Assembly: GCA_010093605.1 (NCBI GenBank)
Contig: MU004195.1
Coordinates: forward strand, 744,001-808,000
DNA: 64,000 nt
Direction: 5' to 3'
DNA from: Lophium mytilinum
Taxonomy: Eukaryota
The notes beneath the pieces were generated by a model. It did no database searches and was not told the origin of the DNA. It saw nothing but the letters and a program-made list of their open reading frames with translations. A program made the position numbers and the translations under genes. Each line of letters opens with the position of its first letter. Position 1 is the first letter of the stretch. Shown piece by piece: positions 11,401 through 17,175 of the stretch.

Positions 11401-12609
11401 TAGCAGAGCTCAGGAAGGTGGCAATGCTCAGACAAGACAGCAGTGTCGTCCAAAGTTCCAATTGAAACTCTACAGTAGTTGCTACTTCAATCCCTCCACA
11501 ATTAGTCGGGGAGGGTGCCGTTTCTAGGCTTTCCGCAGTGGACGGACATGGAAAAGATGAACCAGAGCGTTGGACAGCCTCCCGATGCCAGGCATCCAGG
11601 CCTCCCGGAATCACGCCATGTGAATACAGCTCCAACTCTTACATCCAATCCCCTAGACAAGACGTCCTATCAAAACAGCGGTTAACCGGCCACCCAGGAC
11701 CTGTACCTACTTACCCCAGAAACGTTCGTGTTTGGAGTACCTGATCTATACCAAACAGCTAAAGCGTTGGCTCCACGACACCGACGATTTGGCAAGTTTC
11801 GCGCAATGGCTTTCGCATTCCTATGCCGTGAGCTAGCGCACGCTCTGTCAGATATACAAAGCGTGCTTCCAATCTACTGGGCACCAGACGGCGCGAGCGA
11901 GACTACGTTTATGTTCCCTAACTTTCTAGCACTATCTACTCTCCTTGATGGCCGACAGGTTGTGTTGCCGTTCAAATGCAACATTCAGGGAACTTGGGAG
12001 CCGCGATGGTATAACGACGTCTGAGAGTTGCGTGGGGTTCTCGGGGACGGCATTGGGCAACCTCGGTTTACTCCAAACTTATCACAGCCTTCTAAGCTAT
12101 ATGCTACGTTATCAAAGCTTGCGGATCGGATCCTACACACGGCACATTCCATCGCGTGGACAACAGAGCCGCCCACTCAGCCATTTTCGCGGGTTTCCAC
12201 AACCGAATTCCACCTCACAGCGCCAGCGCCGCTTAGTGCTCTACCTTTTACGCTCCGTAGTGGCGGAAGAGATGTATCTGTGGATGGCGAGCCAAGCTGC
12301 GATATGTTTGCTGGCTGTATGGGCAAGCCAGTCGCAGGCTCCATATACTGCGAAGGCCACTTCAACCAATGGGTTTGTCTGGGGTCGCTTAAGGATATAG
12401 GGTCGGTTCTAGCGGGCCAAGGCGTCAGAGACGAACTGCCTGGAGCAACTCTATACCCGGTGAAACAGTCGTTGGCTCTATGTACCGTCCACAAAGCACT
12501 TTGTCCAGACTCTTCAATTAGGCGAGAGGACTTCCATGACGCGGCGGTGGACACGCAGGCTTTATTTGATGTCTTGGAGGCAGCCATGGCATGCGCCAAT
12601 ACTAAGTAG
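11401..12609 (+). pseudogene. Degenerate gene; C-terminus resembles a DEDDh exonuclease ExoIII motif
   Basis: ORFs 11728-12024 and 12028-12609 share one frame, split by a TGA. Further in-frame TAG/TAA at 11401, 11476, 11503 and 11683. Ends FHDAAVDTQALFDVL. Confidence 0.5.
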
Positions 12610-12826
12610 CTAGGGGAGGACGGTTCGGCTACTTGTATTTCGTGTTCAGCTGGAGCCTGTAAACTCTTAGGCTACTCGGAAAATCGGTGGTTTTTTCATG
12701 CCCATGATGTGGTAATACTCTTAAATATATCCTCTTTCTTACGCACTGGGGACTTCCGCGTGGATTCTAGAACGCAGGCAGTGATGGGAAGCTATACCGA
12801 ACCCGCGATTGCCAGGCGTGTTGAGG

Positions 12827-13500
12827 TCAAGGGATGCATGGAGGATGCAATACCACACTGTAAAATTGAATAAACCATTTCATCACTGCTGGGCTTATGC
12901 CTTGCTCGTTCAATGCGACTGCAAGGGGTGGTCCAGCTAGTACGTGTTGAACCATCTTAAGGGTAGCCTCGATATCCACTGCGTCGACCTTGACAATGGT
13001 ACTGCTACTACAATTATGGACCATAAAGCTGGACACACAGATTTATCACAGCCTGAGTCCAATCCTGCTCGGTCGACACCACTGTAAGGGGTGGCCTGGC
13101 TGGTAGGTATGTGCTTATCTAAAAGGTAGCTTAATATCTACTACATCGAGCTCACAGCAGAAGAAATGTTCTCTTGTCCGTCTGAGAACCGAAGAGTCTG
13201 CAGCAGCCAACTCATAGGGCATAGATCGCCATCCTTGCTGATGGGTCAGGCAAGCCGGCGGTCACAAGATGAGAACGATGCTTGGCTGTCATGATCCTAT
13301 TACGCAAGGATTCAAAGATGGTGGCGGGGTCTCCTGGACTGGCTCGTACCTTTGTAATATTCAGCTTCAAATACACTGCATGACCCTTGGAAAAGGTGCC
13401 TTGCAAACGTCTTTCGAGGTGCCTGACGACGGATTAGAGGAAAGTCGTTTCTTGAACAGTATCCTTGATGGCTGCGGAGACGAATCTGGGGAATCCAGCA
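12827..13500 (-). pseudogene. Degenerate gene fragments of unknown family
   Basis: Protein-like frame AGFPRFVSAAIKDTVQETTFL*SVVRHLERRLQGTFSKGHAVYLKL with TAA at 13436-13434; second fragment at 12827-13036. Confidence 0.35.
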
Positions 13501-13908
13501 GGCATCGCATCGCATTTATCTATGGCTGCTCCGCTACAGTACATCTCAACCCAAGGATGTGGCCCAAAAGTAAGCATATCCGTGTAGCCGTGTAGAAAGA
13601 AAGCGGCCGTGCGCCCTGGCCGGCGTTTGCCCTGCGTGCCTATTCTCGCTCGGGAGAGAGTGTCAGGTAGCCCAGAACTCGATCATCCTTCCCTACACCG
13701 TGACCATTCTCTTGGAGTCTTGTCCCAGTGGTCTGCTAGTTGCATCTTGAGCTTTCGATGTCGATGCCCGCTTCTTCGCAATAGGCTTGATCCAGCTCCC
13801 GCGAGCCCTTTTGGATTCCGACCCTTGCGACGTCACTAGACTACCGCGTTATCCTCCACCTCCACTCCACACCAGCGGGCTCCCAACCAGCCCGCCAAAG
13901 CCGTCAAA

Positions 13909-16240
13909 ATTCCTCCCTCGTCGAACTCTCGGAGGCCTGCCAACATCCCCCTCCACACTCTTTCGTCTTCGTCACGCCCGCGGGACCTCGACTCAGCCTA
14001 TCTGCTCGAGGACGACGAGAAGAACAGCCCGCGATCCTCCTTCTCGTCGGCGACCGCTGCCTCGGAATTCTCCCTTTGGAGCGACACAGGCGATCTTGTC
14101 GACCAGCTTGCAGACGACGAGGATCCTCTCTCGAACCGCCTTCGCGAGTCCGTCGAGGGCGCTCCTCTCGTCACCCTCCCCAAGCACCGCAGGCACCAGA
14201 AACGAGTCCGATACCGATCCCAAGACAACACCAGAGAGAAGAAAGCACAGCCTGGAGTCGTTAAGAGGAAAGAGGATATAGAAATACCGAATCCTGCTCC
14301 CCGGATCATTTCTCGTGCAGAACGTACTATCGCTTTCATCATGGCTCCCCGAGATGGACCCTCCCGTATCCATGGGCTACATGGGAAGAAGCTCATGTGT
14401 GTCCCTACTACCCCCTCACCGTAGTGTACCAGCTCTAACAACCTCTCCCAGTTATTTCACAAGCGTGTTTGTATCATTAGGCGTTTTCTTGTTCGGATAT
14501 GATCAAGGTGTAATGTCAGGCATCATCACGTAAGTAAGGACAACATGTCTTGAATGCTGTTTCTGACTCTGTGATAGCGGTTCGTACTTCAAAGACTACT
14601 TTAATCAACCCTCGAGCGCCCAAATCGGCACAATGGTGGCAATCCTCGAAGTTGGTGCCCTAATATCATCTCTCGTCGTTGGAAGAGTTGGAGATATCAT
14701 CGGACGTCGAAGGACTATCCTATACGGCTCACTCATATTCTTAGTTGGCGGTGCTTGTCAAACATTTGCCAATGGTATGCCAATGATGATGCTGGGAAGA
14801 ATAATCGCTGGTCTCGGGGTGGGAGCGCTATCTACCATCGTCCCAGTGTATCAATCGGAGATCTCTCCGCCTCATAACCGCGGAAAGCTAGCCTGTATCG
14901 AATTTACAGGAAACATCAGTGGATATGCCGCAAGCGTCTGGGTTGATTACTTCTGCAGCTATATCAAGAGTGATTGGGCATGGAGGATACCATTGCTCAT
15001 GCAGTGTGCCATGGGTATACTACTCGCTGTCGGCAGTCTGCTCATCTGCGAGTCCCCAAGGTACTTCCATGTGCCGCTGCTTGGGAGTGTTATGTCCACT
15101 AACTTTATTCAGATGGTTGCTCGACAATGACCACGACGAAGAAGGTATTGTTGTTATTGCCAATCTTTACGGAAAGGGAGATATCCACAACCCCAAAGCG
15201 CGTGACGAATATCGCGAAATCAAGATGAACGTCCTGCTCGGACGGCAAGAAGGAGAGCGATCTTATGCCGATATGTTCAAACGATACTCCAAGCGCGTTT
15301 TTATTGCCATGTCCGCCCAAGCCCTCGCGCAACTCAATGGCATCAACGTCATATCGTATTATGCGCCACTAGTATTTGAAGAAGCCGGCTGGTACGGGCG
15401 TCGTGCCATTCTGATGACGGGAATCAACGCCATCACCTATCTGCTTTCCACCATACCACCCTGGTATGTTGTCGATAAATGGGGCCGACGTCCAATTCTC
15501 TTGACAGGCGCAATTGCTATGATGCTGTCGCTTTCTCTTATATCGTATTTCATCTACCTCCAGGCCAGCTGGACGCCCAATTGCGTCGTCCTATTTGTTA
15601 TGATATACAACGCCGCATTCGGCGCATCTTGGGGGCCGATACCTTGGCTATATCCGCCAGAGATCCTGCCTTTGAGCATCCGCGCAAAGGGCGCGAGTTT
15701 GAGTACAGCTTCGAATTGGGCTTTCAATTGGCTCGTAGGTGAGATGACGCCCATCTTGCAAGAATGGATCCAATGGCGGCTGTACCTCATTCATGCGTTC
15801 TTCTGCGCTGTCAGCTTTGTTGTTGGTAAGTTAATTCAGTGCCTATTAATCCAAAACGTAGAGGCTGACTTGATGCAGTATGGTTCATCTATCCCGAAAC
15901 GGCCAACGTTCGTTTGGAGGACATGAACTCCCTTTTCGGAGACGCAACTTCGGTCATGCCCACGCCCGCTACTCTCGCGGAAGCCGAATCTCTGTTCAGC
16001 GGACATGGTTCGCCCGTGCCATCGCTCGATATCCGACGGCCAGGCTTTGGCGCTGACAATGCTATTCCTGGCCTCGACATCAACCCGCCCGATGTGGGAG
16101 ATGAAGATAGAGCGGAGGCAGGCGAAGGCGTTGGCGGATGGATCTCGAATCTGGTCAAGAACGCTCGCGGCAAAGGCAACGATGATGACGCCCAAAGCGC
16201 CAAATACAAGCAGGTCCACCAAGATGACGAGGAGGAATGA
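13909..16240 (+). CDS. MFS sugar porter (monosaccharide transporter); first AUG at 14341, probable non-AUG extension from 13909
   Basis: LFGYDQGVMSG, GDIIGRR, PVYQSEISPPHNRG, AQLNGINVISYY, WGPIPWLYPPEILP and PET motifs. Introns 14397-14451, 14530-14577, 15061-15112 and ~15826-15878. Confidence 0.92.
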
Positions 16241-17175
16241 AAGATCCAGATCTCAATGTTGAGGATCATTTATTTCACATGCATCGTGTCCGGGGTGGCA
16301 CGATATCGAGCAAGAGTTTAGATGCGCGGCAGCACGATTTGTACATGGCGGCTGCCAGGCTGCGAGGCTGATTATAGAGAGTAGAGTGGGGGCGTTTTAC
16401 GTATGACGCGGCCGGGGGCTGCTCGATCAATCTCATTTTCATTTCGAAACGGCATTCTTGTACAGGTACCAGAATTAAATATATTTTGGACTCCCTTTAC
16501 TTTATGGAAGTCATGATATGACTGCTCGAGATCGTGGTGAATTATGCCTAATTTATACGTCGAAACATCGGCTAAACTTGCTCTTCAGAATAGTATACTG
16601 AATGTAGCCGCTTAACATGCATTTAAATTATATTAACGATCGACAACATGTGCCTTTTGTTCCCCGAAGTTGTAATTCAGAATCATTTAATGTGTTTGTG
16701 GAGAGCTTTAGTTGCTACCTAAGTAGGAGGCACGTAGACAGACAGCCTAGATCGAACGTTGCGGCGCCACCCCTTGGGCTCAGCCCTGCAGAAAGGGGAA
16801 AAGAGACGACGTGGTCTGTTCGTCTCTTCGTGCCAAGACCGCTGGACCTCTCGAAATAGATGCGCGCAAGGGCACCACCACGGATTCCCAAAACTCTCTG
16901 CGCTGCATTCAACGAGGCAGACGCGTTCGCTTTCACGAGGGTGCTCTTCTTTGCACGAATTGCTATTCTCTACCGCCTTTGTAATATATAACCCTTCGCT
17001 TCTCTTCTTTCTCGGGCTTGAGAACTGCTCCTTGTTCAGCCTCCTCACTCCCTGGGCACAGGAGCTCTCCGCCCACGTCCCTTACCTTCTCCTCATTTCT
17101 TCACCGAGACCACGCATAACTTTACGTAGCCCTCTGGCCCCCTAAAGATCTCCTCAATTCCTTCGACCCGTCACC

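Follow-up and report, generated by a model that had tools for sequence, protein, structure and literature searches.

Conserved N-terminal extensions that start at a codon other than AUG are already known, and the closest described fungal cases provide a measure for a gene of Lophium mytilinum that appears to carry another. The stretch of DNA considered here, hereafter the window, comprises 64,000 nucleotides of contig MU004195.1 (GenBank assembly GCA_010093605.1, positions 744,001 to 808,000, forward strand), and positions are counted from its first letter. The gene encodes a sugar porter of the major facilitator superfamily (MFS), and its reading frame continues upstream of the first in-frame ATG, at 14341, to an ATT codon at 13909. 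A sequence-only reading of the window had proposed that this upstream part is an AUU-initiated extension, that scanning complexes leaking past the AUU yield a second, shorter transporter, and that standard annotation would miss the arrangement. Comparison with related loci supports the proposal, since the ATT is nearly invariant, an in-frame ATG upstream of it is lacking throughout and the tract leading to the internal ATG is almost devoid of ATGs. We consider it very probable that the AUU-started extension is translated.

As described by Ivanov et al. (2017, mBio, PMC5487733), Neurospora cpc-1 and its Pezizomycotina homologues have an N-terminal extension that begins at conserved near-cognate codons. 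The two cases are alike in that the extension is in frame and AUG-less, in the use of near-cognates that include AUU, in a favourable context (A at -3), in a distribution across the Pezizomycotina, and in purifying selection on the extension as protein. By that account, the cpc-1 product is a bZIP factor with several candidate codons, AUU being present in 64/100 species, and the extension bypasses an inhibitory upstream open reading frame (uORF). The present locus, in contrast, has one near-invariant AUU. Its product is a membrane transporter, and the AUU lies in an ATG-free tract of ~550 nt with a hairpin 11-15 nt upstream. The words "transporter" and "sugar" have no occurrence in the main text of PMC5487733.

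A second parallel is offered by the arginyl- and leucyl-tRNA synthetases of Cryptococcus (ArgRS and LeuRS), for which Wallace et al. (2020, NAR, PMC7049704) describe AUU- and ACG-initiated mitochondrial isoforms. The arrangement proposed here is similar in that one mRNA would give two isoforms, with a weak near-cognate in a strong context (cccaccAUU in Cryptococcus) and leaky scanning to a strong AUG. The Cryptococcus extension is described as a short mitochondrial presequence, whereas the extension at this locus is a tail of 127-159 residues across loci, predicted to be disordered and cytosolic, on a polytopic membrane protein.

A third report describes that hairpins downstream of near-cognate codons stimulate initiation at them, that upstream hairpins next to the start push 43S complexes backwards, and that the effect of structure levels off above -12.2 kcal/mol (Wang et al. 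2021, bioRxiv 10.1101/2021.12.08.471614). A small stable hairpin (~-13 kcal/mol) also lies close to the start codon here, but it is upstream of the near-cognate, keeps a conserved spacing of 11-15 nt, and is natural and evolutionarily retained. It is thus not the conserved non-AUG extension as such that is unusual at this locus, but the near-invariant single AUU on a membrane transporter together with the long ATG-free tract and the covarying hairpin upstream. Searches of the full-text literature yielded no account of a non-AUG start in this transporter clade, the supplements of PMC5487733 and PMC7049704 being places where further genes might be listed. The locus offers a clean natural case in which start-codon stringency and leaky scanning are directly testable in filamentous fungi, and it suggests isoform-level control of a sugar porter via a 144-residue disordered tail with short conserved motifs. 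To our knowledge, most non-AUG extensions are organelle presequences or parts of nuclear factors, which would make a membrane protein an unusual case.

The ATT codon and the N-terminal extension

In the window, the transporter frame (frame 1) is open from 13840, directly after a TAG at 13837-13839, to 14424, and the proposal was right in placing the first in-frame ATG at 14341. The ATT at 13909 belongs to this frame and is its first near-cognate codon after that stop. It is embedded in gccgtcaaaATTcct, which places C at -4, A at -3 and CC at +4/+5, and the strong context claimed for it is borne out among related loci. For this comparison, 80 metagenome loci were fetched, 67 of which, together with the window (68 loci), hold PANIPLH in frame with WSDTGD. 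The extension frame is open in 68/68 loci. Read back from the conserved Ile to the closest stop in this frame, 0/68 contain a Met. In several loci that stop is just 4-6 codons away (L040/L042, L019/L023/L024, L032-L035 and L050).

Of the 56 non-redundant loci, 53 have ATT as the conserved Ile codon, two have ATA and one has ATC, while the remaining Ile codons of the extension comprise 194 ATC, 89 ATA and 58 ATT (17% ATT). The flanking bases are similarly constant. A occupies -3 in 55/56 loci, even though this codon specifies K, T, I or N depending on the locus, and C is found at -4 in 53/56, at +4 in 50/56 and at +5 in 55/56, the bases preceding the ATT being caaa, cacc, catt, caat or caag. 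An alignment made with a covariance model gives the same picture, with ATT in 71/74 matches and A at -3 in 74/74. The ATT could in principle be an ATG that was misread in sequencing or that mutated in this genome alone; nothing was found in favour of this explanation, which is already refuted, with practically no probability left to it: ATG stands at this place in 0/56 non-redundant loci and 0/74 model matches, and among the differences listed for four sets of transcript contigs (X1-X4, described below), none touches 13909-13911.

Other near-cognate codons are less regularly placed. In 8/55 loci, the window included, no in-frame near-cognate precedes the ATT; in the other loci, upstream near-cognates lie at unconserved positions, and the sole recurrence is an AAG (Lys) directly before the ATT (18/55). 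The motif GGAG.CGGGCUGCUCC....CAGCC, which recurs before the ATT, is non-coding because it is found in all three frames relative to the ATT, and coding constraint therefore begins at the ATT. A CUG in the upstream GGGCUGCUCC motif was also considered as a start and rejected, as its frame varies among all three and the window lacks it.

The extension was claimed to read as protein, and database matches and the pattern of substitution agree. As a query on its own, it matched 162 proteins at E <= 0.001 among 4220 candidates (best match E 1e-87, 92% identity), and the matches listed, at least 120 of the 162, are mostly from Dothideomycetes. When a Leotiomycete extension served as the query, matches extended to Leotiomycetes, Lecanoromycetes, Eurotiomycetes and Sordariomycetes as well. 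Fifty-three non-redundant DNA loci were aligned by codon (152 aligned codons); pairs of loci differ on average by 0.324 at the first codon position, 0.278 at the second and 0.591 at the third, and in the blocks PANIPLH, WSDTGDLVDQ, EDPL and DGPSR.HGLHGKKL positions 1 and 2 are invariant while position 3 varies. Judged from these sequence comparisons, the extension is under purifying selection as protein in the transporter frame, and the arrangement is ancient, extending across Pezizomycotina classes. One might instead suppose that conservation here acts on the RNA of an untranslated leader whose resemblance to protein is incidental, as the conserved hairpin and nucleotide motifs just upstream could suggest. 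This is extremely unlikely, given third positions roughly twice as variable as the first and second over the 152 codons, amino-acid blocks kept from Dothideomycetes to Sordariomycetes and a frame open in all 68 loci.

The 185-residue translation of 13840-14394 gave 0 Pfam families, and in the AlphaFold model of an orthologue (L019) residues 1-110 have a predicted local distance difference test (pLDDT) score < 50. The extension is best read as a mostly disordered cytosolic tail with short conserved motifs, namely PANIPLHTL, FSLWSDTGDLVDQL..EDPL, KRVRY and KEDIEIP, for which we claim no fold or domain. Any specific role for the tail could be proposed with low confidence at most.

One such role had been suggested in the form of a vacuolar sorting signal, DSAYLL. 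The acidic dileucine [DE]xxxL[LI] is an adaptor-binding sorting pattern linked to AP-3 and the vacuole. DSAYLL fits this pattern in the window and, as in known signals of this type, lies in a predicted cytosolic tail, in a part predicted to be disordered in the orthologue. As a general feature of the extension the signal does not stand, since the pattern is present at the aligned position in 21/53 loci and absent from 32/53. DSAYLL may act as a putative sorting signal in its sub-lineage.

Transcripts and gene models

Contigs from four runs (X1-X4) were aligned to 12800-16700. These runs represent three organisms, the window's own (X1) and two relatives (X2; X3 and X4). They are not recorded as RNA, and the contigs are taken as spliced transcripts because the introns are missing from them. 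The X1 contig (3264 nt, 0 differing letters) spans 13002..16473 on the plus strand; it is colinear with the window from 13002 to 14396, then lacks exactly four GT..AG introns and ends at 16473. The relatives' contigs start at 13713 (X2), 13762 (X3) and 13748 (X4), lack the same introns and likewise match the window continuously across the ATT. Thus, the extension sits on the mature mRNA with no upstream exon in these assemblies. Six intronless, cDNA-like contigs from the related loci (L017, L018, L019, L032, L048 and L055) contain a full open reading frame of 695-723 codons counted from the ATT, preceded by a leader of 121-490 nt that has an in-frame stop and no ATG in that frame.

These contigs bear on the possibility that translation of the extension begins at a conventional AUG, located on an exon further upstream or on an alternative transcript. 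Annotated orthologues all start with M, some of them via upstream exons, and contigs drop rare isoforms, both of which would be in keeping with such an exon. It is nevertheless very unlikely: an upstream exon joined to the extension frame is seen in none of the four transcript contigs, all of which are colinear through the ATT, and the six intronless contigs have an in-frame stop and no ATG upstream. The models' N-termini are mutually dissimilar, and where the closest model (P0002) has its ATG, the window reads TTG (13452). An AG splice acceptor at the ATT, where conservation begins, was rejected, since the loci do not share an AG at this point.

From [K/T/N]-I-P onward the annotated orthologues agree with one another, and their N-termini upstream of this point share no similarity. 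Several models are fused to neighbouring genes with PF00443, PF03641, PF00153, PF12271 or PF08610 domains (the fused models are P0050, P0054, P0060, P0062, P0068, P0117, P0119, P0121, P0149, P0163, P0165, P0173 and P0174), and one relative's model is flagged "LOW QUALITY PROTEIN". Disagreeing N-termini and fusions are to be expected if predictors find no AUG, and the fusions appear to be a consequence of its lack. Logan-derived calls show M for starts that are not ATG (P0038 versus P0037). An AUU start would explain a systematic error across the Pezizomycotina, in which unrelated N-termini are invented or neighbours fused, and models started at the AUU would yield one consistent protein.

ATG depletion and the internal AUG codon

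The absence of ATG from the tract had been claimed for all three frames, and it holds: no ATG occurs on the plus strand in any frame between 13764 and 14341, a gap of 577 nt that is the longest on this strand of the window (the runner-up is 526 nt). Related loci share the depletion. The stretch from the ATT to the internal ATG measures 381-477 nt across loci and contains 5 ATGs in 22,662 nt (53 loci), compared with 459 in 21,587 nt directly downstream. When synonymous codons were permuted 1000 times with each protein sequence kept, a mean of 68.6 out-of-frame ATGs was expected (standard deviation 5.8, minimum 49), and 3 are observed. The region from -118 to -1 has 3 ATGs against ~58 expected; depletion starts near -118, and beyond -300 ATG counts equal or exceed expectation. 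The internal ATG itself has a purine at -3 and G at +4, each in 47/53 loci. In this way, the codon-level conservation, the depletion of AUG and the conserved near-cognate codon that the sequence-only reading had wished to see checked in orthologues were all found, and the lack of a synonymous bias that would have spoken against a protein is not what the alignment contains.

Translating ribosomes are indifferent to out-of-frame AUGs. The depletion of such codons therefore indicates that many scanning complexes pass the AUU and need an unhindered path to the AUG at 14341. From this we infer that leaky scanning produces two isoforms, one long and one short, and it is likely that both are functional. 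In the mechanism we envisage, scanning 43S complexes would cross an ATG-free leader of roughly 120-200 nt and then meet the small GC-rich hairpin at 13875-13895. A fraction would initiate at the AUU, in its near-invariant context, to produce a protein of 707 residues of which the first 144 form the mostly disordered cytosolic tail. Complexes that move past the AUU would scan 432 nt without an AUG in any frame, and those remaining would start at the AUG at 14341, in a strong context, to produce the 563-residue core transporter. The anatomy of the gene, its transcription and splicing, the conservation of the extension and of the ATT with its context, the scarcity of ATGs and the covariation of the hairpin are observed, whereas actual initiation at the AUU, the ratio of the isoforms and any differences in their localisation or regulation are things we infer from these patterns.

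Conceivably, only the long protein matters, with initiation at the AUU or nearby, such that the Met at 14341 is an internal residue and any product of its AUG a by-product. The conservation of the extension across classes would fit, and the Met could be kept as a residue of the MAPxDGPSR block. This is improbable, since only the passage of many scanning complexes would be expected to keep out-of-frame AUGs so scarce over ~430 nt in 53 loci, and the AUG at 14341 keeps a strong context. We therefore retain the two-isoform arrangement.

Several observations weigh against AUU initiation or make it less general. AUU is a weak start codon in tested systems and its +4 base here is C rather than G, so the long form may be a minor product. 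The Ile codon has exceptions, ATA in L061, L063 and L064 and ATC in L045 (possibly misaligned), and 13/81 sources lack the search motif. Among these 13, an RNA model recovered six (L007, L036, L039, L074, L075 and L078), three (L054, L067 and L076) have the Ile and no Met as judged by eye, and four (L047, L072, L073 and L079) are cut off before the region. The metagenome loci are related to each other, so the counts given above are not counts of independent events. Some orthologue models (e.g., P0022, P0044, P0077 and P0091) have an in-frame M further upstream at the protein level. A transcript start downstream of 13909 would leave the AUU off the mRNA; the four contigs all start upstream of it, yet contigs can neither define a transcript start nor exclude rare spliced isoforms. 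The reach of X1 to 13002, ~900 nt before the AUU, would add 12 upstream ATGs, and its stretch 13002-13757 may come from an isoform with a long leader or from an overlapping transcript that the assembler joined to this one.

The upstream hairpin and further features of the gene

A finding that goes beyond the sequence-only reading is a covarying hairpin of 6-7 bp that lies 11-15 nt before the AUU. In the window, the spacer to the AUU is 13 nt, and the stem-loop has a folding energy of -13.0 kcal/mol (z -3.2) and is kept in both the minimum free energy and the centroid structures of the 213-nt leader. The motif that recurs before the ATT folds as GGGCUG-N8-CAGCCC. In a MAFFT alignment that was not fitted to structure, 81.9% of cells are paired, versus 30-50% with the partner slid, and 5/7 pairs have changed on both sides. 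The covariation score is 0.212 versus 0.04-0.10 in controls, with 0/500 shuffles as high, values to be read with the helix being short, the sequences related, and the helix having been proposed by eye and from per-sequence folds before it was counted. At least 5 contiguous pairs are formed in 33/56 rows, with spacers of 11-15 nt and loops of 6-8 nt. A covariance model finds one hairpin site per locus plus one weak extra match, and in its alignment pairing is 84.4% with 6/7 pairs changed on both sides. RNAalifold predicted no consensus pair on the MAFFT alignment. The fit is poor in the L053-type, L049, L050 and L061/L063 lineages, and L069 and L071 instead carry another hairpin about as far from the ATT.

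The role of the hairpin is a matter for tentative discussion. It could be a dedicated cis-element that sets the commitment to the AUU versus the downstream AUG, a reading that we regard as possible and rather unlikely. If that is the case, the hairpin could act by refolding at the mRNA exit side of the 40S subunit or via helicase dependence, the ratio of long to short isoform would follow the translational state of the cell (e.g., carbon supply), and the locus would be a natural, ancient, upstream-structure counterpart of the stimulation of near-cognate starts by downstream hairpins. A yeast single-molecule study reports that hairpins adjacent to the start drove 43S complexes backwards and lowered initiation (bioRxiv 10.1101/2021.12.08.471614). 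By analogy, the hairpin may dampen use of the AUU rather than promote it, which would weigh against the proposed AUU initiation.

The remaining features of the gene are collected in the table below. Within the transporter core, exon 3 matches PF00083 Sugar_tr at E 3.6e-37 (128.7 bits, with a Pfam cut-off of 22.3) and exon 4 at E 2e-50 (172.4 bits). Residues 152-596 of the L019 orthologue match solved sugar porters, STP10 at E 3.9e-50, and its AlphaFold model is a helical bundle over residues 150-581 with pLDDT mostly 65-94. From about residue 150 the core thus resembles that of the sugar porters of PF00083 (STP10, GlcP, GLUT3 and XylE), from which this protein differs in its N-terminal extension and in a C-terminal tail of ~100 residues, both without a Pfam or PDB match. 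The names "high affinity glucose transporter" and "STL1" that appear with the matches are automatic ones.

Table. Positions of the transporter gene and associated elements in the window
Feature	Position	Strand	Details
MFS sugar porter gene		+	five exons
uORF	13758..13784	+	ATG TCG ATG CCC GCT TCT TCG CAA TAG; 8 codons + TAG; second ATG at 13764
Stem-loop	13875..13895	+	GCGGGCU (13875-13881) with AGCCCGC (13889-13895); 7-nt loop
ATT, proposed AUU start of long isoform	13909..13911	+	conserved codon and context
N-terminal extension	13909..14340	+	144 codons; ATG-free in three frames; conserved as protein
Exon 1, coding part	13909..14396	+	open frame and transcript contigs; ends at GT..AG intron
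DSAYLL, fits [DE]xxxL[LI]	13990..14007	+	in part of the lineage only
First AUG, proposed start of short 563-aa isoform	14341..14343	+	context atcATGg
Intron 1	14397..14451	+	55 nt; GT..AG; transcript contig
Exon 2	14452..14529	+	
Intron 2	14530..14577	+	48 nt; GT..AG; transcript contig
Exon 3 (Sugar_tr)	14578..15060	+	Pfam match and transcript contig
Intron 3	15061..15112	+	52 nt; GT..AG; cut +2; transcript contig
Exon 4 (Sugar_tr)	15113..15825	+	Pfam match and transcript contig
Intron 4	15826..15878	+	53 nt; GT..AG; cut +1; transcript contig
Exon 5, coding part	15879..16240	+	TGA stop included

The C-terminal tail (15940-16237), which makes up the last ~100 residues, is also kept among orthologues, with the pattern FGDAT..MPTP.TLAEAESLFS..SPVPSLDI...AIPGLDI.PP...GGWISN. 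Nothing in the PDB matches it, and it is predicted to be disordered in the orthologue model.

The short uORF that had been noted upstream of the tract is present in the sequence as described. At 119-166 nt before the ATT, related loci have an ATG, in many cases one followed directly by TGA. In twelve of them (L008, L009, L011, L013-L015, L019, L020, L022, L025, L029 and L032), the motif ccaATGtgaccgac surrounds a bare ATG-TGA, i.e., a one-codon uORF; the corresponding position in the window (13755-13772) reads ATG TCG ATG instead. Two cDNA-like contigs, L017 and L018, have a 6-codon uORF at this position, without the ccaATGtgaccgac motif, and start 2-9 nt upstream of its ATG. Several contigs begin within a few bases of the uORF position, which may therefore sit at the transcript start, and the position may mark a site at or near that start rather than a translated uORF.

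A second conserved leader motif, GACCCTGTGACGTG, lies at about -100 in Pleosporales-type loci. Its form in the window is gacccttgcgacgtcac at 13819-13835, with an ACGT core, and may represent either an RNA element or a DNA site close to the promoter.

Searches of the leader and its surroundings found no Rfam families in 12800-14400 at E <= 1, no tRNA in 12500-14000 and no repeats in 12900-13300. A stretch of ~45 nt at 13058-13102 aligns to several otherwise unrelated contigs of X1-X4 whose flanks are unlike, and its 35-nt core has a single occurrence in the window.

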